IMG/VR virus record: IMGVR_UViG_3300045988_112172
Strand: one strand, 5' to 3'
Source of the DNA: a virus
Length of the DNA: 64,000 nt
Shown: positions 6,541-61,922 of the stretch, one piece after another
Numbering within the stretch: the stretch's first letter is position 1
How the letters are laid out: every line of letters begins with the position of its first letter
The notes under the pieces: model-generated
Told to the model about the DNA's origin: nothing
Seen by the model: the letters and a program-made list of their open reading frames with translations, nothing else
Databases searched by the model: none
Program-made: the position numbers and the translations under genes

Positions 6541-6579
6541 GTATGAGAAGGAGATTTTTTTAATGCTGCGGATAATTTC

Positions 6580-7074
6580 GTGGGAGGATGTTATAATAAG
6601 TTATCTAATGAAGATATAAAAAGGCTTGGAGGAAAAAGACCTTATGTATGTCAGTTTAATAAAATTCATATACATATAGGGCCTGTATTAAAAGATCATG
6701 ATTCTGATGTTAGTTACATAATGTTTAATAGTAATTGGAATTATGGTGGTTATGATTCTATGGTTTATAATCATAGCAATAATGGTATTTTTATATTAGG
6801 CGAAAATAAAATTGGTAATATAGAAAATCATATACAGGATCTAACATATTGGTACGAATATGATCCAAACATTAATGAAAATTATTGTTATTATTATTAT
6901 GAAGCTGATAATAGTGGAAATGCTATTAAGTTGAATGGTGAGTTTAGTGATGTTAGCACTGTTTTTAACATTCCCAGTTTGAAAGTTACCACTCTTCGTG
7001 ATGGCAGTTTGAGTTTCCCAGAGATTTATATAGAAGGAGTTTGGGATCCGTCATTGTATAAGTCGATTTTATAG
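6580..7074 (+). CDS. hypothetical Asn/Tyr-rich protein (164 aa) in a very AT-rich segment; possible passenger gene adjacent to the IS
   Basis: ORF with markedly lower GC than its neighbours, low-complexity Asn/Tyr-rich composition, lying between the giant gene and the left end of the tnpB element. Confidence 0.4.
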   Translation: MGGCYNKLSNEDIKRLGGKRPYVCQFNKIHIHIGPVLKDHDSDVSYIMFNSNWNYGGYDSMVYNHSNNGIFILGENKIGNIENHIQDLTYWYEYDPNINENYCYYYYEADNSGNAIKLNGEFSDVSTVFNIPSLKVTTLRDGSLSFPEIYIEGVWDPSLYKSIL

Positions 7075-7084
7075 TTAATTTTGC

Positions 7085-8480
7085 AAAAAAGTTAATTATT
7101 ATGATGCAAAATAATATCAAAAATAATTAATTCTATTTCATAATCCAAATGAAATATGTATCTTAGATACATGGTTTGTAAATAGCATTTAATGTATTAA
7201 AAATAATGAGATTAGTATATAAGTTCAACATAGGGCAAAATGAAAATATATCATCTTTGTGTAAGATTAGCAACAACTTGTACAACCAAGCATTGTATAT
7301 TTTCAGAGAAACACTTTCTAAAGAAGATAAGTGGTTATCCTATTTTGAACTTGATGATATCATGAAGAATACCAAGAACTTAGATGGAGACATTAATTAC
7401 AGATTACTAAAGGCGCAATGTTCTCAACAAGTTCTTCGTATTCTTGATAAAAATATTAAAAGTTATTACAAATCGGTCCAAGATTACAAAAAACATCCAA
7501 CTAAGTATAAAGAAAAACCTGGTCTTCCAAATTACAAAAAGAGAGGTTATGAGTTCAATTTGTATTACACGAGTCAGAGTTGCAAAATAAAAGATGGGAA
7601 AATAATCCTATCAAATTCCTCAATATGAGAAGTATTCTGATTTGATAAAAGATTTCAAACAGATTAGAATAAAACCATTAGCATGTGGATATAAAATAGA
7701 AATCATTTATGAGGTAAAAGATGCTGAAGTATCTAAAGGTAGAGAAGAGAAGATTGCTTCAATCGATTTAGGGATTGATAATCTTGCAACTCTTATCAGT
7801 GAAGATTTTACTGTTCTATTTAGTGGTAAATTTGTTAAATCATACAATAAGCTATTCAATAAGACATTAGCTAAATTAAATAGTATCAAAGATTTACAAA
7901 AGATAAAAGGAACAACAAGACGAATAAAGAAATTATATTATGATAGAGAACAGTACATAGAAGATGTCTTTCATAAAATCAGTAGAAAGATAGTTAATTT
8001 ACTTATCGATTCCAAGATAACAAAATTAATTGTAGGCTACAACAAGGGATGGAAAACTGGAGTAAACATGGGAAAAAGGAATAACCAGAAATTCACACAA
8101 ATCCCTTTTGCGAGATTGGTTAGTTACTTAGAATATAAATGTGAATTAGCTGGTATTGAAATAGTTATTCATGAAGAGTCATATACTTCAAAATGTGATT
8201 TTCTTGCATTTGAGAAGATAGGAAAACATGAAAACTATTTAGGAAAGAGGAAGAAACGAGGATTGTTTCAATCCTCGGTAGGAAAACTCATAAATGCAGA
8301 CGTAAATGGAGCATTAAACATTATGAGAAAAGTAGTCGGTGATTCCTGTGAATCAATTCGTAGGATAATCGATAGAGGGTTATTGTTTAACCCGGTGAGG
8401 ATTACGAATGTATTTTGTTAAGAAGGTGCATTCTGAAACTTATAAAGAAATGTAATAAGTTTTATTGAATTTAATATTTT
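7085..8480 (+). mobile_element. IS200/IS605-family (IS1341-like) tnpB-only insertion element, copy 1, degenerate
   Basis: TnpB ORF flanked by AT-rich ends. A perfect subterminal hairpin sits at 7156-7172 (atgtatc tta gatacat), as expected of IS605-family left ends. There is no tnpA. The element lies in an intergenic gap of the structural block. Its boundaries are approximate. Confidence 0.6.
7206..8421 (+). pseudogene. tnpB: tnpB (RuvC-like, IS605 OrfB family), split into two frames (7206-7628 frame 0, 7642-8421 frame 1); zinc finger degenerate
   Basis: The second part has RuvC-I (IDLGIDNLA), a RuvC-II-like segment and a C-terminal NADVNGALNIMRK motif typical of TnpB. The N-terminal part matches the TnpB N-terminal region. 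The junction is not at a homopolymer, and only one Cys remains in the Zn-finger region. Confidence 0.7.
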
Positions 8481-12065: not shown

Positions 12066-12773
12066 ATGAAGATATTAAATTCGTTGAAAGATTCAAGTAT
12101 TTTTTTTAAACATGATGATGCTACGAGGATATTGGAACACATCGAGTCCGTGTTAAAAGCATCAGTGGACTACTACTATCCTAATCATTCTAAACCTGAA
12201 GCAGAACCAGGAGACATGGGAGAAGTTTCTGACGGATACCATACTTTCAATGAATTGTATCGGTACCGTATGTTGTATAATGCCGCCTTCTTTAATTTAT
12301 TAGCCAGAAACGGACAGGTTGAAGTTTGCAAATCAAGGAGACACAGCGACGGAGAAAGATGCTTCGGTTCTGATGACTGGTTTATTGTGATGGCAATGTT
12401 ACCCACTGGTCAGGTGTCTAATCACTATGAAAGCAAATACTGGGATTTGTTTGATGTTCCAGAAAGAGAAACCGCTTTCGAATATGATGGCCATACACCA
12501 AATGAAGCCGCAGACAGACTTGAACAGTATCTTTTTCGAAAGAAATCGGGTTTAACATTTGAAGAAGCTTTTAAATTTTTGAAAAATGGTAATAATATCA
12601 AAAGGCATGGGTGGAAAAATGAACATCTTGATGCTTTTAGAAAAAGTGGTGTTAGCTCAATTCATGTGGAAAAGTCATTGATCATAATTATAAATGAAGA
12701 AACACGGAGGCTGACATCGTGGAATCCAAGTATAGAAGATATATCGTCGAATGACTGGGAGGTTGTGAAATGA
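12066..12773 (+). CDS. hypothetical protein (235 aa); N-terminus may extend to 12002 through a frameshift in a T8 run
   Basis: Good ORF. An upstream 36-codon ORF (12002-12109) ends inside a tttttttt tract where the 12066 frame continues. Confidence 0.55.
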   Translation: MKILNSLKDSSIFFKHDDATRILEHIESVLKASVDYYYPNHSKPEAEPGDMGEVSDGYHTFNELYRYRMLYNAAFFNLLARNGQVEVCKSRRHSDGERCFGSDDWFIVMAMLPTGQVSNHYESKYWDLFDVPERETAFEYDGHTPNEAADRLEQYLFRKKSGLTFEEAFKFLKNGNNIKRHGWKNEHLDAFRKSGVSSIHVEKSLIIIINEETRRLTSWNPSIEDISSNDWEVVK

Positions 12774-14396: not shown

Positions 14397-14447
14397 GCGT
14401 AACTTGACGATTTACGTCAGATTATAATTTTTTTTCATATTATTTTT

Positions 14448-14485
14448 AAGCCATCAGACTGAGAAGTTAGATGGCTTTATTTTTT
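14448..14485 (+). terminator. rho-independent terminator
   Basis: 8-bp stem aagccatc / gatggctt, followed by tatttttt. Confidence 0.55.
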
Positions 14486-14489
14486 ATGA

Positions 14490-15750
14490 TTATTTAACCA
14501 ATAAACCCACCATGCTTTAGAAGGTGGATGAATTGGTTTGATTAATTTTGAATCAAAATTACAGATAAAAAAAATGATTTCATACAAATACAACATCTAT
14601 CATTCCAAGAAAACGAAGTATCTTGACAAGATACTTCGCGAATGTTGTTTTGTATGGAATCATGCGTTATCTCTACAACGTAGGTATTACAAACTGTTTG
14701 GAAAATATATATCAATTGGTAAGATGAAGAAGCATTTTGCCAAAAGAATTAAAAGAAACTTGCTTCATTCTCAAACAACACAAGAGATACTTGAACGACT
14801 GGATGAATCTTACAATCGTTTCTTTAAAAGAAAATCAAAGAGACCTCCTAAGTTTAAAGGATCTGATTGCTTCAGCTCCTTTGTTTTTAAACAAGGAGGT
14901 TTTACTATAAATGGCAATATTCTCACAATAAACAAAGTAAAGAAACGTTTTAAGTTTTCATACAGTAGAGTCTATGAAGGTAATGTCAAACAAATTAGAA
15001 TAGTTAGAAAAACTTGCCATCGATATAGTTTGATTATAATTACAGATCATAATCATTCAAACTCTTATAGAAAGACACATAATGGTGCATCTATCGGATT
15101 GGATTTTGGGCTGAAAACTTATCTAACTAAAAGCGATGGTAGCAAAATCGATTCTCCATTATTCTTCAAAAAAATATCAAAACAAGATTAGAAAACTAAA
15201 CAAACGGCTTTCTAATGCAAAGAAAGGATCCAACAATAGAAGAAGGAGACTGTTTGAACTACAACAAACGTATCGTAAAATAAACGATCTTCGATCAGAT
15301 TTTCAATGGGGATTAGCACACCAGTTATGCAAACAGTATGATTATATTTTTATTGAAGATCTAAACATTGAAGGAATGAAACGTTTGTGGGGAAAGAAGG
15401 TTTCTGATCTTAGTCATTCTTCTTTTATTGATAAACTTACGTATGTTGCCTCAAAGTATGGAGTAACTGTACATAAGATTGACAAATGGTATCCTTCTTC
15501 CAAAACTTGTGAATGTGGCTGCATTAATAAAGGGCTGTCGTTACGCGACCGCACGTGGGTGTGCCCCTCGTGCGGCGCAATCAACGACCGTGATGTTCTT
15601 GCAGCCCGTAATATATTTCGGAAGGGCATTTCCGAATTGGAGAGTATGGGTAATTCCGATGGTAGTAATACCGAGGTTCCATACGTTTGTATCCAAGAAT
15701 CCCATAGCCTTTAGGCGTGGGAGTATGTCAAGATATGCTTGATTTTTAAC
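14490..15750 (+). mobile_element. IS200/IS605-family tnpB-only insertion element, copy 2, a different subfamily from copy 1
   Basis: TnpB ORF with a conserved 3' end and right-end region that recurs as a solo copy at 59.4 kb. It sits immediately upstream of the second giant gene. Boundaries are approximate. Confidence 0.65.
14538..15714 (+). pseudogene. tnpB: tnpB (IS605 OrfB family, with RuvC-II IFIEDLN and CxxC...CxxC zinc finger), frame-shifted in an A7 run near 15165-15171
   Basis: Part one ends in RuvC-I (IGLDFGLKTY). Part two carries the basic linker, IFIEDLN, CECGC...CPSCG and a RuvC-III NDRDVLAARNI motif. The two frames overlap at ttcaaaaaaatatc. Confidence 0.75.
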
Positions 15751-15781
15751 TACCTTTGTCTTATAACAAAAATGTTTTACT

Positions 15782-18700
15782 ATGACATCAACGTGTATTA
15801 TTAAAAGAGATAATAAAAAGAAAGTTGTTTCTGTCTCTACCAGATCAGGGGACAGGTCTATGTTGTTTGATAAAATAGCATCTATTCCTCTTATGGAGAA
15901 TAGGGAACGGGCTACTACTGTTTTTAAAACCGTATTTTCTAATAAGTTCTTAAAGGCTTTTGGTGACTGGAGAAGGAATGTACCTGTTAATAAACAGGCT
16001 TATAATAAGGTAAAATCCAACATCGGCCTTATTCCGGAATCCTATAGAGAAAGGGTGCTGGATAAGGCGTCTAAGATGAGTAACCCTGTTCTTGTGTCAA
16101 AATCAGATGCACCTTATGAAATCCAAGAATCGGGCTTTGGATTCTACAGCCAAGATCTGGGTGATAATATTATGTTGGTGGATGCTATGGTTCCGTCAAG
16201 CATTTCCGTGCTGGAAGGACCTGGAATAGACGCCGGTCAGTATCTACAAGATGCTATATCTTCGGACTTCACTCCCGTATCTATGGTACAGGATAAGGAT
16301 GCTAATTATATGGTTATAAAAGACGGTCTTAAGATATTTAGCCCAGAAGAGCTACCGGAGGCAGATCCTAATCCTGTGGGTGTAACGTATCAGACCGGAG
16401 AGCCTCGTTTGTTTTTTATGAACGATCGTAGTCAATTATTTGAAGATTACGGAGAAGCTCTTCGTTCTGGTGGGAATGATATTAGAATAGGATTCTTATC
16501 CGGCACCGTTCAAGAATCTACCGTGGATGGCGTGGCAGACATTACATACAAGGCTGGAAAGTATGTTCTTAATAATCCCAAGTCTTTTATACCGGTCATG
16601 ACCGCGTCTGCTTCTACTTCTTTATCAACAAAAGGTGGTATAATTAACTACCTTATAAAGAAAGGTCTTTTGTCCGGATCTAAGATATTAGATCCTGAAA
16701 CAAGAAGCTATTATCTTACAGGAGAAGGACATACAGGACAAATTAGACTTTTCAATTCATCCTTATCCTACACCGAGCTCCGTAATCATTTTGGTTCCGA
16801 TGTTTCCATGAACGACCAAGGTATGATAACCATAAGCTCGTTGGATAATAGTAAGGTAACTATGAGGCTCGCCACCGGAGGAACGGAAAGGGTTAGCAAA
16901 GAGCAGATAAAGAACGATCTTAAGTCAGGAAGATACAATGAATTGGATGCTAAGTACGATCATTTTGATGCGCTTGTAGTTTCATTCATATTAGAAGACA
17001 ACGATCTTTATGCTGATACTAAAGCTAAGATCGTATCGGATTATAGCAGGCAGGAACGTGACCAACGAAATTCTATTGTCGAGATACTGAAAACGCTTGG
17101 CGTTAGTGTCATAGGTATGACCGATTATATAGAGAAGTACCAAACCAAATACGGGCATGAACCTTCTGCTAAGGCATTGGCGGATATTGCCAATAACGTA
17201 ATAGCAGTTGGTGAAGATGCTACTTTATCTGATTTAGTAGAAGAAACATCCCACTTCCTTGTAGAGGCATACAGAGATCAGAATGCTGTTGAGGCTGTTC
17301 TGCAAGATGTAGAAGGTACGGAAGAGTGGAACCAGTATGCAGGTCAGTATTATAATACATACGGTAAGGTATATGAAGGATCTGAGCTTGATAATGCCGT
17401 TAGGAGAGAAATTCTTGGAAAGATCCTCGCCAGGGAGATGCAGACCGGCACAGCACAGGCGCCGGTAGAGCCCACCTCCTTCCTGGGGCGCGTCCGGCAG
17501 CTTCTCTCTGGAATCGTAAGCTGGCTTAAATCAGCTTTATCAACCCAAAGACAAGATTTGAATAACGTTATTAAAAGCATTCGTGATCTTGCCATTACTG
17601 ACATAGATAAAGGATTTGACACTTCTCTGTTAAAGGATAATGACTTTACATTATACTCCCTTTCTTCTATGAACAAGAACAAGTTTCTTGAGTCTAAGAT
17701 CAGATCGCTAAGAAAAACATTAAGAGACTTACGTCAGATAAGCTCTGATAGGGCTGTAACTACGTCTATGACCCTTGCTCAGCTTAAGACCATAGAAGAT
17801 AAGATAAATAAAGTAGAGACCGAGATAGACAAGAATGAGATGGCGGCTGCCATGAACAGCATGATCTCCACAGCCGAAGCTCAGGTCAGATACTTAAGTA
17901 ATGTGGTGAACACCATCCTTCATGGTGATACCAAAGACGGTAAGCTTCATTTCAATACCAATGATCGAAAGAATGTAGATATTATCAACAATCAGGTTCT
18001 TCCGATCATGAACGATCTCCGAGGATATATCCGTAACAGAAGTACCGAATTTGATGAACGTGAAAAGCAGGATTATACAAATAGGATCAATACCGTCATT
18101 GCCGACATCAATGGTATTCAGTCTGATATTAAATCAGTACAAGACCTTGATGAAAGTACGTTGCTTGATAAGTTAATGAACGAACTTCATGTGCCGGCAG
18201 ATAAGGTAAAGAGAGTAAAAGAATTTTTCGACAAGGTTCAACACGATGTTTCTTGGATAAGTAGGTGGTTTGGTATATTAGAGCATTCTTCCAGTCCGTT
18301 CAATAACGCTCTTGGAGCTATGATTGCCAAAGACAATTACAATGCGATGGTGAATGCCCAGCCCGCCATATCCGACTTCCTGGCATATGCTAAAAAGCAT
18401 GGTTTTAACAAATCTGAATTTGAAAAACTGCTTCAGAAAGTAGACGGCAAAACTTCTAATTACCTTCGTAGTGCTCTTGATATGGCTAAATACGATCGTA
18501 ATAAGAAGCTGGCGCAGATGCGAGCGTTTGCGACTGCCATGAACATAGAGATATCAGAAGAAGAAATTGGTGATGTGGTTGACAATAACCGTAATTACGT
18601 ATTTAAAAGAGAAGTAGTTGACAAGGATGGAAATACGGTTACTGAAAACGCTAAATTCAAACCATCGTCTGATAGAGTTAATACCGATATTTTTACCATC

Positions 18701-22372: not shown

Positions 22373-22406
22373 GTTATGAAAAAAAGGTATATAATTACCT
22401 AAGTTT

Positions 22407-29245: not shown

Positions 29246-30265
29246 TCATCGTTTTATCTTTTTAGACGGATCCCAATCCGAAGAGAAAGGGCATTCGTTT
29301 TTGTTATGTAATCCAAAGTCACAATAATAACACAGTGCTGACGGGCAGGGTAGCTTGTTTTGCGAAACAGGCTGGCTTAGGGTGGCACGCCTCTTGCTAT
29401 ACCTGGTTCCTTCTGCTCCCTGGATGTATGCTTGAAATGCTTTTACACTATTATCTTCAAAATCATACATTTTAGACAAAGTGTCATTTAGCATCTCTAT
29501 AGATTTTGTTTTACGTTCCTCATCTACCTTAACCTTTTGGTACTGTCTGGTCCTGGTAAAGAAATAGATGTTCATATCTGGCAGAACTCCGCCATATCTT
29601 CTATAGATGTAAAATGAATATATAGGATGCTGTAAATTTGTTTCCAACTTCTTAGAGTCAAAAACCTTATTACCGGATTTCCAATCTATGACATAATGGT
29701 GAACTACGTTCTTGCTTTTTATAGCCAGATGAAGGTCTACCGATCCTACTATGTACACATGAGTATGAACGGTCCCATTTATATCAACAGGCTTAGGAAG
29801 ACGGTACGGCAGCACAAAATCTTCTTCGACTCCAACTATGGCGCCGTGTCTGATAAGTTTCTCGCAGGGATTAAGATCACTATCAGCTATCATAAACCTA
29901 TTGCCGTCTTTTTTGAACAGATCCACAATCCAAGCAAGAAGTTCCCCAGATTGCTTCATGGCCATCATCATATTTTCCGGTGATTGCCAAGGTATGTCCT
30001 CCTGGTAAGCATAGTAACTTATCGCTTCTCCAAGGTCTTTACCAGAAGGCTGTCTTCCGTTCTTAAAAAAGTATTCCAGTGTCTTATGGATAACCGTACC
30101 ATAAGACGTAGCTTCTTGTTTTTCCGTAGACCTTTTGCCCTCTACGTAAGTCTTATACCATTTCATTGGACAGGTAAGAAACGTATCTATCTGGGAATAA
30201 GATATGGCAAGACGTTTCACACCATTAAACTCCTTATATAGCAAATGCGTTTCCGGGACCATCAT
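29246..30265 (-). CDS. PD-(D/E)XK nuclease, Cas4/RecB-like, with a C-terminal Cys cluster (339 aa)
   Basis: VGSVDLH ... VIDWKSGN (motif II/III-like D ... D/ExK pattern) and a C-terminal CPSALCYYC ... C cluster, as seen in Cas4/AddB-type nucleases. Confidence 0.6.
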   Translation of the reverse strand: MMVPETHLLYKEFNGVKRLAISYSQIDTFLTCPMKWYKTYVEGKRSTEKQEATSYGTVIHKTLEYFFKNGRQPSGKDLGEAISYYAYQEDIPWQSPENMMMAMKQSGELLAWIVDLFKKDGNRFMIADSDLNPCEKLIRHGAIVGVEEDFVLPYRLPKPVDINGTVHTHVYIVGSVDLHLAIKSKNVVHHYVIDWKSGNKVFDSKKLETNLQHPIYSFYIYRRYGGVLPDMNIYFFTRTRQYQKVKVDEERKTKSIEMLNDTLSKMYDFEDNSVKAFQAYIQGAEGTRYSKRRATLSQPVSQNKLPCPSALCYYCDFGLHNKNECPFSSDWDPSKKIKR

Positions 30266-30609
30266 AAGTCATTGTCTTTAAATCCTTCCGGGTAATATAC
30301 GACATACTTCTTACCGTCTTCTGGTGTCATGGCAAACTGCATGTAGTTATTACGATTACGATGCTTGCCATCTAATCCTCGCTTCCAATACAGGATGCCG
30401 TCTATATCCACATAAGACCGTCCGCGTTCGGCTCTAACTACGTCCGTGTGTAGCAGATACCCGTCGGAAGACACAATCCATACTTTATCCCCTTTGTTTA
30501 AATAAGATATTCTTTTTCTTACAACAACCTTTTTCTTATTATCCAATACAAATTCCTCATCAGTCATACTCTTCATCCTCCTCTTCTTCTGTTTCAAAAT
30601 CAATTCCAT
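30262..30609 (-). CDS. hypothetical protein (115 aa)
   Basis: ORF with its stop overlapping the nuclease start. Confidence 0.55.
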   Translation of the reverse strand: MELILKQKKRRMKSMTDEEFVLDNKKKVVVRKRISYLNKGDKVWIVSSDGYLLHTDVVRAERGRSYVDIDGILYWKRGLDGKHRNRNNYMQFAMTPEDGKKYVVYYPEGFKDNDL

Positions 30610-30639
30610 ATCCCATATTCTATTAAATATATTTAAAGC

Positions 30640-31152
30640 TATTCGTATGTTTTAATACATCCCCTCGGAGACCTTTCGGTCTCCTTGGTAGATGTAAATC
30701 CCGTTAGGGATAAGTCAGGATTTCTCCTGTAAGTACCCATCGCCAATGTTATTTAAGGTTTTGAATAAGCAACACTGTTCCTGAATACCAGAACTGTTTA
30801 ATCACTTACCTTAGAGCTACAGACTTGGGCAAACATCCGTAGGTAACTATCTATTCTTAAATAACGTAGCCTTTGTTTCAAGGCTTAGGCTAATAACCCG
30901 ATCTCTTAAAGAGATGTATTAAACTTTTATAATAGAATTATATTGGTTTAATACTATTTGGGGTTATAACACTGATCATAATGATTGGTCAGTTCTTCTG
31001 GTTCTAAATCTTGTCCAAAATCCATGTTAAAAATATCGTAATTAGTAAAGCACTAAAAATCACTATTCCTGCTGGCATGAAATCTATAAATGCTGCTTTT
31101 GCTTCTTCAATTAGGCCCAAGTGTAACCTTGGGCCATTGTATTTATTTTTTG
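30640..31152 (+). ncRNA. candidate structured noncoding RNA (about 500 nt), antisense to the flanking gene block
   Basis: A 530-bp stretch with no ORF of 60 aa or more on either strand, inside an otherwise gap-free gene block. It is GC-richer than its surroundings. It has several perfect hairpins (GGAGACC-tttc-GGTCTCC, CAGGA-tttc-TCCTG, ATCTCTT-aa-AGAGAT, AGCCT ... AGGCT). It ends in a canonical plus-strand terminator (8-bp stem ggcccaag / cttgggcc at 31114-31135, followed by attgtatttattttttg). Confidence 0.4.
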
Positions 31153-43888: not shown

Positions 43889-44320
43889 TCAATTATTTTT
43901 AGTTGTTATTTGATCTTCTAAATTGCCTTTACCCTCTAATTTAGATAATGCTTGTTCAAATTCCTTTATTTCCTTTAAGGCGCATTCCTTACAATAGGTG
44001 ATAATATCAAATTCCTTTATTTCCTTTAAGGTATATTCCTTACGATAGGTGATAATATCAAGTTGTGTATAATCCGTAAAAAATCTGTCTATCATGTTCT
44101 TATAATGAAACCGTACAGGTTCTTCACAATGATTTAGTAAAATCACAAAATTGGAATTTCTCGGATGAAAACACAAGAATCTGTAATAATTCACTTTCCC
44201 TGCTATACATTCAATTAACTTTTCATCCATCTTCAATTTATTGATGTCTTCTATGTTTAATATCGGTTTCATATCTTTAGTTATTGGATAGAGATAAAAG
44301 CGATTCGTTTGACTCCGCAA
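43889..44320 (-). CDS. hypothetical protein with an internal 17-aa tandem duplication (143 aa)
   Basis: The ORF contains an in-frame 51-bp tandem repeat (two copies, 43957-44058), giving DIITYRKEYTLKEIKEF / DIITYCKECALKEIKEF. Confidence 0.5.
   Translation of the reverse strand: MRSQTNRFYLYPITKDMKPILNIEDINKLKMDEKLIECIAGKVNYYRFLCFHPRNSNFVILLNHCEEPVRFHYKNMIDRFFTDYTQLDIITYRKEYTLKEIKEFDIITYCKECALKEIKEFEQALSKLEGKGNLEDQITTKNN
43957..44058. repeat. 51-bp tandem repeat, 2 copies (about 90% identical), in-frame inside a CDS
   Basis: caaattcctttatttcctttaagg[cg/ta][c/t]attccttac[a/g]ataggtgataatat occurs twice. Confidence 0.7.
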
Positions 44321-45694: not shown

Positions 45695-45734
45695 TGTGAT
45701 AAGTTTATAAAAAAATGGTATATAATTACTTCAA

Positions 45735-46532
45735 TTAATTAGATGCAAATATGCTAATTTTGTTTAGATATCCTTCTGTCATCTCTATGAAATTCACACA
45801 ATCTAATTTGCTTAACTTGTAAATCAATGCCGGATTGTGTACTATGGCTATAATTTGCGTTTGTGGTTTATGGAATGACAATACATTATAAATTTGCATT
45901 ATATTGTCAATGTCAAGATTTCTGTCTGGCTCATCCATGAGAACCGTGTATTCAAAACTGCTTTCTGTTAATGTTATGCGGTTTCTTCCATAATACTTCA
46001 ACAGGTTATCAATTCTTTTAATCCAAAACGCATTTGATTTTTTCTTGTATTCTACAAGATCTTGTATTGGAAATGTATAATCCTTTTGACCGAACATTAA
46101 ATTGAAGAGTGATTCCAATGATAACACCACTTTCTCTCCATAAGATCTTCGAATATTATTCACATACAAATCGAAATTGCTGATGTTTTTCAATACGCTA
46201 TCTCGATTCATCTCCGCCGATGGCAATAAACGGAATACTTTCCCTGCATAATCAGATGATATGTCAATCCCATCAAGAACCTTGTCATCATCATCAAATA
46301 TAGGTGGAAAATCCAGCGCCTCAGCCGGCATTTCAGAGCACATGGACTTCTCGCATAACGCATACATTGATATGATGTTAAGCAAAGTTGTTTTTCCACT
46401 ACCGTTTTTACCTATAATTACATTCACTCCTGGCTTGAAAATAAATTCTTTACCATTTTCAAACGCTTCTATGTCCGAAGCATATTCAAATGGAGTTTTT
46501 GTATTGTCTTTTATTTTTACTGATGTTATCAT
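45735..46532 (-). CDS. ABC-type (AAA_21/SMC-like) ATPase (265 aa)
   Basis: Walker A VIIGKNGSGKTTLL, degenerate signature RRSYGEK, Walker B VLMDEPDRNLD and H-loop IAIVHNP. Too short for a transporter NBD with a canonical LSGGQ. It resembles small defence or abortive-infection-type ATPases. Confidence 0.65.
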   Translation of the reverse strand: MITSVKIKDNTKTPFEYASDIEAFENGKEFIFKPGVNVIIGKNGSGKTTLLNIISMYALCEKSMCSEMPAEALDFPPIFDDDDKVLDGIDISSDYAGKVFRLLPSAEMNRDSVLKNISNFDLYVNNIRRSYGEKVVLSLESLFNLMFGQKDYTFPIQDLVEYKKKSNAFWIKRIDNLLKYYGRNRITLTESSFEYTVLMDEPDRNLDIDNIMQIYNVLSFHKPQTQIIAIVHNPALIYKLSKLDCVNFIEMTEGYLNKISIFASN

Positions 46533-50925: not shown

Positions 50926-51272
50926 AATCTTATTTGTTTTAGTAATTATATACTATTTTACGACATCTATGTTATAAAACATACGAATGATAATTAATTT
51001 CATATTCTTCTTTTCTAACTTTGTTTTACTCAATCGAATCAATAAGTCCCTTGTTTCGGACAAGACGGTTGAGTAAAAGAGGTCTTTGATATAAGGTTCC
51101 GTCTTGAAAACGTAAGATGGGTAAAATCAAAAACGTTTTTTAGTAAAAGAATCCGGCGATCTCACTTTTGAGCAATCGGTAGAGGGTATTGGTGATACCC
51201 AGTATGATGCTTCGTACAAATGTATATCATTTTTCATCTTTGATATAAAATGGTGTATAATCACCTTAGTTC

Positions 51273-55890: not shown

Positions 55891-56138
55891 TCCTTTATTC
55901 TACTTATCTTTAAATCGTTATTCCCACAGTATTCCTTCAACCAACTATCCGTTAGATAACGATTAACTCTATCGTATTTCTTTTTCGGACCCTTGCTCCA
56001 GAATTTCCATTCGTTTGTGATATCATACCCATATTTATCAAACCAATGGATATAATACACTACGTTACCGTACAAATCCACTCTTTTTCTTTCCTGTATG
56101 ACTACCTCGTAAGGCATCTTCTTGCCTCTTTTCTCCAT
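55887..56138 (-). CDS. hypothetical protein (83 aa)
   Basis: ORF. Confidence 0.45.
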   Translation of the reverse strand: MEKRGKKMPYEVVIQERKRVDLYGNVVYYIHWFDKYGYDITNEWKFWSKGPKKKYDRVNRYLTDSWLKEYCGNNDLKISRIKE

Positions 56139-58280: not shown

Positions 58281-59090
58281 TTAAATACTTAACTCTTCAA
58301 TGGTCAAGCCTTTTTCTTTTGCCCACTTTAGCATCGCGCATAATTCTGTTTCTGACTTATATTTCGGATCACGCCACGCCCATCCGAATTTATCCAGGAC
58401 ATGATGATATAATTCGTCGGCCTTTGCCGTGTAAATGTCTTTGAATAAATGCTCCGAACCTTCCGGTATAAGCATCTCTGTTGTTGCAAAATCGGAATAC
58501 GATAAACATCCGTAAGCATATTCTGTTATTTCACTCCATGCTTCTCCGGCTTTAAATCCAAATTCTTTTACAAAAGCCAAAGTTAGATACATATTTAATA
58601 ATATTGTTACATCATATCCGGAATCCGACTTTCTTTCTATTATTTCCTTTTCAAATTCCTTTAAATCTTCAGGTCCTAAAAAGATGTATCCTGATACCGA
58701 CCGGTAATTAGTCTCCGCATACTTCTTGCATTTATCATCATTGACAATCTTACTAATGTTAGATAACATCTTTTGCCTCCATTCATCACAAAACTCTACC
58801 TCTACGTTCATCCAATCAGTACCATAATTATATTCTTTCGGATATCCGACCGATGTTACCTTTATACTATTCACGCCATATCCGTAAAGGCGTTCACTTA
58901 CCTCATTCGCCCATTCCTGTACAAAAGGAATAAACTTATTGTAATAAGAATCAAAATCAAAATCTAATTCCTCCTCATATTCCGGCATCTCTTCATAATC
59001 CTGTTCAAAGAAATGACGAGGATCTGCTATTGTTTCGTAGAAACTTACGTTAATGAAACAAAACTCGTTGGTTGTCGTTTTTAATATCAT
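58281..59090 (-). CDS. hypothetical acidic protein (269 aa)
   Basis: ORF. Confidence 0.55.
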   Translation of the reverse strand: MILKTTTNEFCFINVSFYETIADPRHFFEQDYEEMPEYEEELDFDFDSYYNKFIPFVQEWANEVSERLYGYGVNSIKVTSVGYPKEYNYGTDWMNVEVEFCDEWRQKMLSNISKIVNDDKCKKYAETNYRSVSGYIFLGPEDLKEFEKEIIERKSDSGYDVTILLNMYLTLAFVKEFGFKAGEAWSEITEYAYGCLSYSDFATTEMLIPEGSEHLFKDIYTAKADELYHHVLDKFGWAWRDPKYKSETELCAMLKWAKEKGLTIEELSI

Positions 59091-59341
59091 AACTTTTTGT
59101 ATTTACGTACATTTTTCTTGCCATAGAATCTACACATGGCACGAATCTGACTATAAAATACTTTTGTCCTCCTGGCCTCAAAGTATTTAAACATTTCTTC
59201 ATTCTTTGTTTCCCAAACGTAATCCGTTTGGGAACTCATGCGATCTTTCTCCTTGCGTGAATAATGGTAATATGATACCACAACACGTTTCATACCATTC
59301 TTTACAGGTACGATATTTACGTCTATACTATTCTCTGTCAT
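59087..59341 (-). CDS. hypothetical protein (84 aa)
   Basis: ORF. Confidence 0.45.
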   Translation of the reverse strand: MTENSIDVNIVPVKNGMKRVVVSYYHYSRKEKDRMSSQTDYVWETKNEEMFKYFEARRTKVFYSQIRAMCRFYGKKNVRKYKKL

Positions 59342-59419
59342 ATTATTATTGTTTTATGTTATTTAATGGTAATACTGATCCCATTTATGTGTCAGATGAT
59401 AATTAAACATTATATTTGC

Positions 59420-59549
59420 CCTGTCTTGCGACCTCGGAAGGGCATTTCCGAGTTGGAAAGTACGGGTGATTCCAACGATTGTAAAACCGGGGGTTCCGTA
59501 CGTTTGTATCCAAGAATCCCGTTTGCTTTAGCGATGGGAGTATGTCAAG
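59420..59549 (+). mobile_element. solo remnant of the IS605-family tnpB 3' end plus right end (omega-RNA/reRNA-like scaffold), related to tnpB copy 2
   Basis: About 80% identity over roughly 105 nt to 15628-15732 (tcggaagggcatttccga[a/g]ttgga ... gttcc[a/g]tacgtttgtatccaagaatccc ... gggagtatgtcaag). The only coding potential is a relic of the TnpB C-terminus (RKGISELES.G.S); no tnpB body is present. Confidence 0.65.
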
Positions 59550-59651
59550 CATTATACAAATACAAAGAGCGCATACCTTCACAGGCCGGCGCTCCTTTCA
59601 ATAAAAATGAAAAAACTAATATTACATAAACATATTGTTTTCTACTCTTTA

Positions 59652-59885
59652 TTACAATACTTTTGTTCCGCAATTATTATATCTTCCGTACTCTTTTTTC
59701 GTATCATTCAAGATTTCAAAAACCATCTTCTTGTGATCTTCGTTTGGTAACCTATCCTTAACAGCCGATATTACGCCCACTATAGACGTAAAGCCTGAAT
59801 CTGTTATTGAACACAGCAACACGCCTCTGTCGGCTCCGGTGCTTATTGCTGACGCCTTTATAATATCATTCTTATATATTCTCAT
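59652..59885 (-). CDS. hypothetical protein (77 aa)
   Basis: ORF whose start lies 21 nt downstream (in minus-strand sense) of T-arm-like motif 1. Confidence 0.45.
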   Translation of the reverse strand: MRIYKNDIIKASAISTGADRGVLLCSITDSGFTSIVGVISAVKDRLPNEDHKKMVFEILNDTKKEYGRYNNCGTKVL

Positions 59886-59906
59886 AACTTTTTTGTTTTA
59901 TTGTTT

Positions 59907-59985
59907 GTGAGATGCCCAGAATCGAACCAGGACCGGCACATACGCACCGGCACGCCGCGTCATCCCCCTATATGATACAGAAATA
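59907..59985 (-). other. tRNA-like element 1 (T-arm plus acceptor-3'-like motif; cloverleaf not confirmed)
   Basis: The minus-strand sequence reads ...CCTGGTTCGATTCTGGGCATCTCAC, a T-stem-loop with the TTCGATT loop. I could not pair a canonical 5' acceptor strand by hand, and the only candidate gives a roughly 61-nt molecule. Confidence 0.3.
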
Positions 59986-60061
59986 GGCATGCCTATCCTC
60001 ACGAACCGACATGCCAAAACCCAAAACTTAATTTGATGAATAAAATAGATTAACAAAAATA

Positions 60062-60376
60062 CTATTCTAATTCTTTTATAATATCTTTCACAATATTCAG
60101 CCTTACCTCCTTCGTTTCTGGACTAAGACAACCAAACCACCCATAAAACGTTCTTGTTTCCTCTGGTTCTGTGGCCATACTTATCTTCTCCTCCAATTCC
60201 GGGAAATATATTCTCACCATTTCGTCTGAACGAAACTCATAGATATTTTTATGTGTTTTGAAATACATAAACACTACATTTCTTAACGCAACACATATGT
60301 ATTCCCCATCCTCTAACCTATCAATCATCTCATATACCTTTTTCCATATGAATAATCGCTCTTCTTTTGTAAACAT
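60062..60376 (-). CDS. hypothetical protein (104 aa)
   Basis: ORF. Confidence 0.45.
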   Translation of the reverse strand: MFTKEERLFIWKKVYEMIDRLEDGEYICVALRNVVFMYFKTHKNIYEFRSDEMVRIYFPELEEKISMATEPEETRTFYGWFGCLSPETKEVRLNIVKDIIKELE

Positions 60377-61133: not shown

Positions 61134-61156
61134 GTTCTTCCCTATTTTAATGTTGT

Positions 61157-61245
61157 GTGAGATCGCCGGAATCGAACCAGCCTACCGCACCATGAATCCC
61201 ATAAAGCAAATGCTCCGATCTTCGCAGATGGGAGCATTCTGTCTA
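61157..61245 (-). other. tRNA-like element 2 (T-arm plus acceptor-3'-like motif; cloverleaf not confirmed)
   Basis: Minus strand ...GGCTGGTTCGATTCCGGCGATCTCAC. Upstream of it is a perfect 8-bp hairpin AATGCTCC(14 nt)GGAGCATT. No canonical acceptor closure found by hand. Confidence 0.3.
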
Positions 61246-61801
61246 AAGCATAAGAAAATTAATGAAGAAATTTTTCTCACTTACGCCATAGCATCTAAAA
61301 TAGCTATCAGCACTATTTCTATGACAAACATAATAGAAAATATCTTAAATGCCTTTTTCATATCGCTATCTCCTCCTTTTTATTTTTTTAGTTCCACAAT
61401 AAACTGTTCCGGCTCTGCTCCGAACTACGTTCCACCTACAACCGCAGGCCTTAGCCCAAGGCGCCGCCTACTCCCCCTCTATGGCAGCCTGTTCGTACCT
61501 ACAAATCCAGTCTCCTTCCATACAACTATCACTACGCGATAACAAACATGTATCTTTATAACAATCATAAAAAAATACATCTCTCACAACTGTAATCCCT
61601 AATTTCTACACAGCTAACTACCTTAGCATATACTATTCCATCACTGCCTTCTATTCCTCTTACCCCAAAAATAGAACCTTCTCCCTCCTTACTCAAATCT
61701 AAGTCAGGCGCAAAGTCATATACGTTCATGTTGTTTATGTTTTAATTGTTATACATTCCGATTACTACTAATCTATAGAATATAGTTTTCAACTCTCAAC
61801 C

Positions 61802-61922
61802 TATTGAATTTTGTTGAATAAACTCACATTATGCCGTTTTAAAGCACTGATCTGTTGAATTTTGTTGGATAAACTCACATTATGCCGTTTTAAGGCACTG
61901 ATCTGTTGAATTTTGTTGGAAG
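61802..61922. repeat. 51-bp tandem repeat, 2.4 copies, noncoding
   Basis: t[a/g]ttgaattttgttg[a/g]ataaactcacattatgccgttttaa[a/g]gcactgatc at 61802, 61853 and partially at 61904. The overlapping 67-aa ORF is probably a translation artefact of the repeat. Confidence 0.7.

Follow-up and report, generated by a model that had tools for sequence, protein, structure and literature searches.

Why does a phage genome carry the last stretch of a tnpB gene, together with the right end of the element it belonged to, 43.8 kb away from the nearest tnpB of the same family? The question arises in a 64,000-nucleotide stretch of viral DNA (IMG/VR record IMGVR_UViG_3300045988_112172, hereafter the window), in which an original prediction, made from the letters alone, had placed a retained omega-RNA scaffold and right end without a nuclease gene at 59420-59549. 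Empty-site comparison, a covariance model and covariation among relatives all back that proposal. The segment very probably forms part of a tnpB-less derivative of an insertion sequence (IS) of the IS200/IS605 family (tnpB-only, IS1341-type) that resembles the palindrome-associated transposable elements (PATEs) and keeps a complete omega-RNA gene. On balance, we lean towards reading it as a PATE-like orphan guide-RNA gene for which TnpB is provided in trans.

A solo segment within a precisely inserted 191-bp element

Pairwise alignment of 59300-59700 with 14401-15900 (blastn) returned one strong match, in which the solo segment (59434-59549) is 83.6% identical to 15618-15732 over 116 columns (18 mismatches, one gap, E 3.5e-31), close to the value of about 80% first estimated. 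The match takes in the last 97 nt of the reading frame of tnpB copy 2 (stop codon 15712-15714) and 17-18 nt of its right end. The right boundary originally given holds; the start moves to 59434, and the coding part amounts to 97 rather than 85 nt. The similarity is thus not limited to a coding relic. Within the window, the 22-mer TACGTTTGTATCCAAGAATCCC and the end GGGAGTATGTCAAG are found solely at the solo segment and at tnpB copy 2, against chance expectations of 0.00 and 0.34, respectively. Searching with both halves of TnpB (tblastn) yielded codons 349-379 as the sole match at the site (59435-59531) and no transposase body upstream of it, as had been predicted. An 87-aa plus-strand open reading frame (ORF) at 59366-59629 that spans the element was considered and set aside as a frame-scrambled relic of the TnpB C-terminus.

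What the segment belongs to can be read from a comparison with csAssE-Sib (OR575929.1), a 151-kb phage from the human gut to which the window is ~96% identical, and of which we found no mention in the literature. Alignment of the two genomes reveals 191 extra base pairs in the window (59358-59548, or equally 59359-59549, given a boundary ambiguity of one G), and the csAssE-Sib flanks join seamlessly, without a target duplication, at the empty site ...ATTATTGTTTTATG|CATTATACAAATAC..., which can also be written ...TTGTTTTAT(G)CATTATAC.... The same holds for the full-length sibling: where the window carries a 1244-bp tnpB-only element, csAssE-Sib reads ...TTTTTTATG|ATATGCTTG... without interruption. 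Both elements lie 3' of TTTAT(G), start with (G)(A)TTATTTAA and end with GTATGTCAA, and neither duplicates its target; at the mini element, target and left-end start (59346-59366) match 14477-14497 at 91%. This pattern is the signature of the IS200/IS605 family. Since GTCAA is followed by any base at the right-end flanks of ~25 other family sites, we take TCAA as the end of the family and TTTAT as its target, and the eight distinct insertion sites of full-length relatives with the same type of left end (type A) all end in T(T)TAT(G).

Because the site is empty in csAssE-Sib and the segment has a left terminus of its own, it is part of a discrete mini element and not a relic eroded in place. 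The scaffold proposed at the outset therefore stands, and its description as a 3' relic gives way to that of a 191-bp element at a TTTAT target (Table 1).

Table 1. Positions of the mini element, its parts and its full-length sibling in the window.
Feature	Position	Strand	Evidence or remark
Target / transposon-adjacent motif (TAM), TTTAT	59353..59357	+	Directly 5' of element; empty site in csAssE-Sib
Whole mini element (G TTATTTAA ... GTATGTCAA)	59358..59548	+	Absent from csAssE-Sib; same locus in 21 IMG/VR contigs
Left-end part: terminus (G)TTATTTAA, then degenerate hairpin region	59358..59433	+	Type-A-like left end
Promoter-like site GTGTCA-16 nt-TATATT, overlaps TATATTTG	59389..59418	+	Sigma-70 scan
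Omega-RNA scaffold, complete, 115 nt (well supported)	59434..59548	+	Covariance model R1, covariation
Predicted 16-nt guide GCATTATACAAATACA = flanking phage DNA	59549..59564	+	Identical to sequence after TTTAT at empty site
Full-length sibling, tnpB-only IS, 1244 bp	14488..15731	+	Empty site in csAssE-Sib
Sibling omega-RNA scaffold (reference copy)	15618..15731	+	Covariance model R1, 130.6 bits; fold z -2.88

The element shares several features with PATEs. At 191 bp it is too short for a transposase, its right end and its left terminus TTATTTAA are those of the 1244-bp sibling, it has no terminal inverted repeats and no target duplication, and it is inserted 3' of a short motif. Two features are missing, namely palindromes at both ends (the left hairpin is absent) and several mobilised copies (IMG/VR holds a single locus), and we therefore call it PATE-like or PATE-derived and not an active PATE.

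According to Meers et al. (2023, PMC10055086), it is common for PATEs to encode an omega-RNA whose TnpB must come in trans, and the PATE-like elements of Geobacillus stearothermophilus described there are likewise gene-less, bounded by the ends of a TnpB-carrying IS and subject to the same proposed logic of TnpB homing. The element studied here differs in residing in a phage genome instead of a bacterial chromosome, in its degenerate left hairpin with no TnpA in sight, and in occupying a single orthologous locus, of which occupied and exact empty alleles have both been sampled in nature, instead of forming a multi-copy family. In Haloquadratum walsbyi, PATEs such as HqIRS71 still carry the part of tnpB that encodes the C-terminus (Dyall-Smith et al. 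2011, PMC3119063); they and the terminal-only derivatives of ISHwa23 also arise from core deletions of IS1341-type (tnpB) transposons and lack inverted repeats and target duplications. Unlike the present element, they are archaeal, chromosomal and of high copy number, and were described before the omega-RNA was known, so that scaffold integrity was not assessed there; their deletions are repeat-mediated at palindromes, whereas the breakpoints of the present family gather at the scaffold's 5' edge (see below).

The DNA to the right of the mini element (59560-60150) is prone to insertions and deletions among relatives, with four different deletions at loci L012, L031, L064, L065 and L066, some of which begin inside the element or 9-10 nt beyond its right end. 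L031 lacks ~1.4 kb (58409-59804) and has in its place a lone omega-RNA scaffold, which points the opposite way.

The omega-RNA scaffold, its predicted guide and a promoter-like box

Scans of IMG/VR with two conserved words recovered more than 160 family loci in gut-phage contigs; the family lives in a group of ~80-160-kb human-gut phages. Among 88 full-length relatives, homology extends over 114 nt, made up of codons 349-379 and the 17 nt that follow, ending in GTCAA, and the flanks diverge beyond. From 21 distinct sequences, aligned independently of any structure model with MAFFT, RNAalifold derived a consensus in which stem 1 occupies columns 1-18 and a long central stem, capped by an apical one, columns 20-80; a terminal hairpin whose loop reads UUUA follows at 84-106, and the tail, GUAUGUCAA, is single-stranded. 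The covariance model built from this alignment (R1) scores the solo copy at 127.1 bits, and both the solo copy and the sibling copy match over the full model length (positions 1-115).

Base pairing is maintained throughout this alignment, with 98% of cells able to pair and 8 of the 36 pairs changed on both sides, compared with 30-53% paired in slid controls. A larger set of 58 distinct sequences was aligned to the model and so leans towards the structure; here 97.7% of cells pair and both partners have changed in 20 of 36 pairs, compared with 30-56% paired in slid controls, and none of 500 shuffles comes up to the data on any of the four measures that discriminate. The apical stem covaries in the family alignment, as does the right-end hairpin (helix 5), which lies ~10 nt from the TCAA end. 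Taken as a whole, these data support well that the conserved 115 nt form a full-length omega-RNA scaffold. Rfam gave no gathering-score match to an omega-RNA or IS605-orfB family in the window, and just noise at E values up to 10 in 59300-59650; no curated family covers this lineage, and the result is not evidence against the RNA.

The differences between the two copies in the window fit the same structure. The solo copy departs from the sibling copy at 19 positions. Of the 11 that are paired, 10 retain or regain their pairing, and at three pairs (30/65, 47/52 and 92/99) both partners have changed; the eleventh change breaks the apical pair 45/54 (A.C). This bears out the earlier suggestion that substitutions might be compensatory. 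Since the mini scaffold is ~12-17% different from every full-length copy and pairing is nonetheless preserved at 10 of 11 changed paired sites, it diverged under structural constraint, at least before the deletion.

A distant relative conforms to the same fold. In the metagenome-assembled genome of a Ca. Cryptobacteroides sp. (JBGVNX010000030.1; L063, 4044-4153), the covariance model finds an RNA downstream of a TnpB that is 54% identical; it keeps stems 1, 2, 3 and 5 through multiple compensatory changes and ends in an identical tail, GAGUAUGUCAA. This genome is the sole bacterial relative recovered by a TnpB scan of genome contigs. It hints at Bacteroidales as host or as source of the IS family, and as one relative at 54% is all that the scan gave, a Bacteroidales host is likely but only tentatively so.

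In ISDra2, a 116-nt scaffold followed by a 16-nt guide forms the functional core of the omega-RNA, in which a UUUA tetraloop occupies -20 to -17; neither the 5' extension nor apical stem 3b is required (Nakagawa et al. 2023, PMC10097598). The RNA described here is alike in its ~115-nt scaffold, which overlaps the tnpB 3' end and stops at the right end, in a 16-nt guide taken from the flank, in having several stems, and in a UUUA loop ~20 nt from the 3' end. The dispensable upstream RNA of ISDra2 fits the deletion boundary of the mini element, and stem 3b is the equivalent of the mini apical stem that carries the A.C mismatch. The two differ in that no RNA sequence similarity is detectable between them, and in the TAM, which is TTGAT in ISDra2 and TTTAT here. 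A candidate ISDra2-like pseudoknot would join GGC in the stem-1 loop (G8 G9 C10) to GUC in the tail (G111 U112 C113); these columns are essentially invariant, which renders covariation uninformative, and their complementarity is kept even in the Cryptobacteroides relative.

Downstream of the scaffold, the predicted guide is matched nowhere else in the window, even when three mismatches are allowed. The original prediction had asked whether the 16-19 nt adjoining the right end match a site in phage or host; the match that does exist is exact and lies at the empty allele of the locus itself, TTTAT|GCATTATA(C/T)AAATA, present in csAssE-Sib and in ~100 IMG/VR contigs of related phages, where the TAM directly precedes it.

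Upstream of the scaffold by 15 nt lies TATATTTG (59411-59418), which fits the Bacteroides -7 consensus TAnnTTTG (used, for example, in passages of PMC4747536), overlaps the sigma-70-like match listed in Table 1 and occurs only five times in the window, counting both strands. The same box precedes tnpB in relatives with the other type of left end (type B) and precedes the scaffold in an independent mini element (L025). A promoter function of the box is putative.

Recurrent tnpB-less derivatives and the possible activity of the element

The window element is one of at least six independent tnpB-less derivatives, together with L025, L031, the L170/L175/L182/L211 class, the L192 class of seven contigs (L192/L199/L204/L229/L233/L236/L241) and L255, which sit at other sites in related phages. 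In all six, homology sets in 0-10 nt upstream of TCGGAAGGGC, where stem 1 begins. What lies upstream differs, being a type-A left end with the A-run that immediately precedes the start codon of tnpB, a type-B left end (junction at TAATA), the promoter box, or unrelated phage DNA. Derivatives that keep the scaffold reach up to 22, 7 and 4 genomes, whereas those that cut into it (L051 and L026) are singletons. Other derivatives retain the gene from codon 321 (L049), codon 331 (L186) or codon 110 (L174), and L019 carries an internal deletion.

Uniformly placed breakpoints cannot yield this clustering. The shared boundary is most simply explained by selection for a guide gene that is intact and close to its promoter, and a deletion hotspot at the base of stem 1 could also account for it; the census of derivatives is itself biased, because the second search word required stem 1. 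Microhomology was considered as the cause and did not convince, as one class joins at TAATA and the others at 0-3 nt, in an AT-rich gene full of such motifs. On natural variation alone, the recurrent boundary marks the 5' edge of the minimal functional scaffold in this TnpB lineage, which is useful for engineering.

One candidate source of TnpB in trans is the full-length sibling. In the window, an additional A in the run 15168-15174 (A7) splits tnpB copy 2 (14574-15714); with that A removed, the gene encodes a 379-aa protein, continuous in 88 related loci, with Pfam matches to OrfB_IS605 and to a Cas12f1-like TNB domain and with homology to ISDra2 TnpB (8bf8/8h1j, E 2.2e-29). The RuvC motifs GLDFG, IEDLN and DRDVLAARN are present on inspection by eye, which sets this TnpB apart from nuclease-dead, TldR-type proteins. 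The copy 2 nuclease may in reality be intact, since a homopolymer sequencing error is possible in A7, as it also is in a G run of the mini element that varies in length. Among the 21 IMG/VR contigs that carry the mini element, at least six also carry an intact 379-aa sibling tnpB (L024, L045, L046, L178/L249, L193 and L198), a lower bound in that contig fragments were examined. The other tnpB of the window, copy 1 (7206-8421, plus strand; OrfB_IS605 4e-21 and a TNB domain in Pfam), has no sequence relationship to copy 2. A frameshift near 7615-7640 divides it into two ORFs (140 and 259 aa), and it lies in a segment (6556-8472) that differs from csAssE-Sib; model R1 finds no omega-RNA of the family studied here beside it.

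A mechanism can be tentatively proposed from these features. Transcription of the plus strand would start at the TATATTTG box, run through the scaffold and continue into the flank, yielding an omega-RNA with the guide GCATTATACAAATACA. This RNA would be loaded by TnpB provided in trans, be it by the full-length sibling in the same phage, by a co-infecting phage or by the host, and the complex would cut genomes in which TTTAT-GCATTATACAAATACA is uninterrupted. Repair from an occupied genome would then copy the element in (homing or retention), or the rival genome would merely be damaged. The occupied locus should be spared, because TCAA there replaces the TAM. Cleavage of the empty allele by a complex of this kind, with homing or exclusion as its outcome, is in our judgement conceivable, with the odds slightly against the full chain of events. 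The element itself is probably no longer able to transpose, given that its left hairpin is lost, that it occupies a single locus and that no TnpA was seen.

Population data from the 22 genomes that carry the element (21 IMG/VR contigs and the window) are compatible with this scheme. The mini-specific scaffold variant and left end occur at this locus only, and neither the scaffold variant (GGAAAGTRCGGGTGATTCCAAC) nor the left end (TTATTTAATGGTAATACTGATCCC) was found in any full-length parent in IMG/VR, all matches being to the same locus. Across these genomes the 191 nt hold three variable sites and one G-run length polymorphism, none of them within the left 76 nt, compared with 26 variable sites in 259 nt of the left flank. 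This lower diversity is suggestive. The left and right flanks each come in two diverged haplotypes, and the element is found with all four pairings of them; single-nucleotide polymorphisms at -17 and +8 show all four gametes with its presence or absence. Homing or repeated precise excision would give such a pattern, which is compatible with the proposed mechanism and not evidence for it: we rejected the haplotypes as a sign of homing, because ordinary recombination suffices and the same recombinants occur among empty alleles.

Of the three options raised originally, a trans-acting guide-RNA locus fits these observations best, and a decayed IS stays a live rival where activity is concerned, given the degenerate left-end hairpin, the broken apical pair and the frameshifts in both tnpB genes of the window. 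In this main rival explanation, to which we give a distinctly smaller though appreciable probability, the element is an inert fossil, the dead remnant of an IS with an internal deletion that is passively carried in one phage lineage, shuffled by recombination and too young to have decayed. Many observations speak for it and against an active guide-RNA gene. As DNA, the left part lacks a stable hairpin (z +0.07, compared with -2.9 for the full-length left end), which also bears on mobility. The A.C mismatch at the apical pair is present in 21 of 22 genomes, the G run adjoining it varies from 4 to 7 among genomes, and on its own the mini RNA is no more stably folded than shuffled sequences (z -1.05), unlike the sibling scaffold (Table 1). 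Three contigs (L064-L066) keep the left end and have lost the scaffold through rightward deletions. The element occupies a single locus, at which the occupied allele is in the minority (~22 compared with ~100 empty), so that any drive must be weak. Its low diversity falls inside a locally conserved island, and the left-right recombinants are also seen among empty alleles (49, 19, 9 and 6 genomes). A fossil of this kind does not readily account for paired-site changes that so largely preserve pairing in a scaffold so far diverged from every full-length copy, or for six derivatives with a common 5' boundary, of which the scaffold-keepers spread to several genomes and the scaffold-cutters did not. 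Nor does it readily explain the retention of the promoter-like box, or a variability so far below that of the adjacent coding DNA.

An active non-autonomous transposon, that is, a true PATE or miniature inverted-repeat transposable element moved by a Y1 transposase (TnpA) from the host or another element, with the omega-RNA homology incidental to the right end, appears improbable. Something does move the family, which has ~25 distinct insertion sites in related phages, and the precise, duplication-free insertion 3' of the target, the right-end hairpin ~10 nt from TCAA and the four gametes, which repeated precise excision could produce, would all suit such an element. Against it stand the restriction of the variant and its left end to one locus in IMG/VR, the unstable left end, and the lack of any Y1 transposase in the scanned ORFs and in that part of csAssE-Sib which is annotated; moreover, a right end needs just the terminal hairpin of ~35 nt, which leaves the 115 nt kept in six derivatives unexplained.

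Nothing supports the adopted regulatory RNA originally suggested as a third option, and regulatory exaptation, in which the insertion would alter the neighbouring minus-strand gene through antisense RNA or a new 5' leader, or would guide a TnpB-derived repressor, is very improbable: the element does lie between a hairpin (59567-59594) at the end of the upstream minus-strand gene and the start of minus-strand ORF 59087-59341 (start codon at 59341, 17 nt from the insertion), where a plus-strand transcript would be antisense to a read-through message, yet the only match of the guide is to its own flank (the empty allele), not to a promoter or gene anywhere else in the window, the cognate TnpB keeps its RuvC motifs, ~100 relatives do without the insertion and three have the scaffold deleted, and other tnpB-less derivatives lie in unrelated contexts.

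A more general form of the orphan guide-RNA reading is that such loci are guide-only selfish units, in which the tnpB elements of these gut phages repeatedly lose precisely the nuclease ORF, are reduced to a left end, a promoter and an omega-RNA, and persist by hijacking the TnpB of a sibling to cut phage genomes that lack them. We regard this as an unlikely, speculative extension. If it is true, orphan omega-RNA genes, and with them an orphan HEARO/IscB guide at 30611-30968 (see below), would be cheap loci for homing or inter-phage exclusion, parasites of a parasite, and the nucleotide-sharp, recurrent 5' boundary would be explained. Gene-less IS200/IS605 derivatives with an omega-RNA have already been noted in bacteria and archaea, and their activity in trans is mostly assumed. 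The present locus offers a clean natural test bed, with one orphan guide-RNA gene in a phage, intact and broken cognate tnpB genes in sister genomes and ~100 empty alleles, and could show whether TnpB homing acts between co-infecting phages and whether a guide alone persists as a selfish unit.

Other features of the window

The window holds a second orphan guide RNA. An insertion of ~355 bp (30611-30968), absent from csAssE-Sib, carries a full-length HEARO RNA on the minus strand (30729-30967; RF02033, 112.9 bits against a gathering score of 83), which is the only real Rfam match in the window. The 5' end of the RNA is flush with the insertion boundary, and the insertion appears to supply the ATG (30609) of ORF 30262-30609. 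No IscB gene is present in the insertion, and the neighbouring gene (29246-30265) encodes a PD-(D/E)XK nuclease. This IscB omega-RNA resembles the mini element in that the guide is kept and the nuclease lost, in the same window; it differs in belonging to the IscB and not the TnpB class, in lying at the left end with a 5' guide, and in its unrelated sequence.

To the right of the mini element, two 35-nt copies that are 80% alike (59896-59930 and 61146-61180) resemble the 3' half of a tRNA (..GGTTCGATTCTGGGCATCTCACA.., minus strand). ARAGORN predicts no tRNA in the window, nor at the corresponding place in csAssE-Sib, which has ~394 extra bp adjoining the first copy. Separate 51-nt tandem duplications occur at 61801-61902 and 43956-44057 (families D6 and D7; 94% and 92% identical, respectively). 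An intergenic repeat, ..AAAAAAnGGTATATAATnAC.., is present four times (family D1; 22374-22405, 45705-45736, 51240-51271 and 56035-56066) and, with its resemblance to an extended -10 promoter, may represent a class of phage promoter. Finally, just upstream of the tnpB insertion, the plus-strand ORF 12066-12773 combines a WDGH domain with a Thoeris anti-defence 2-like (Tad2) domain and is a candidate anti-defence gene.

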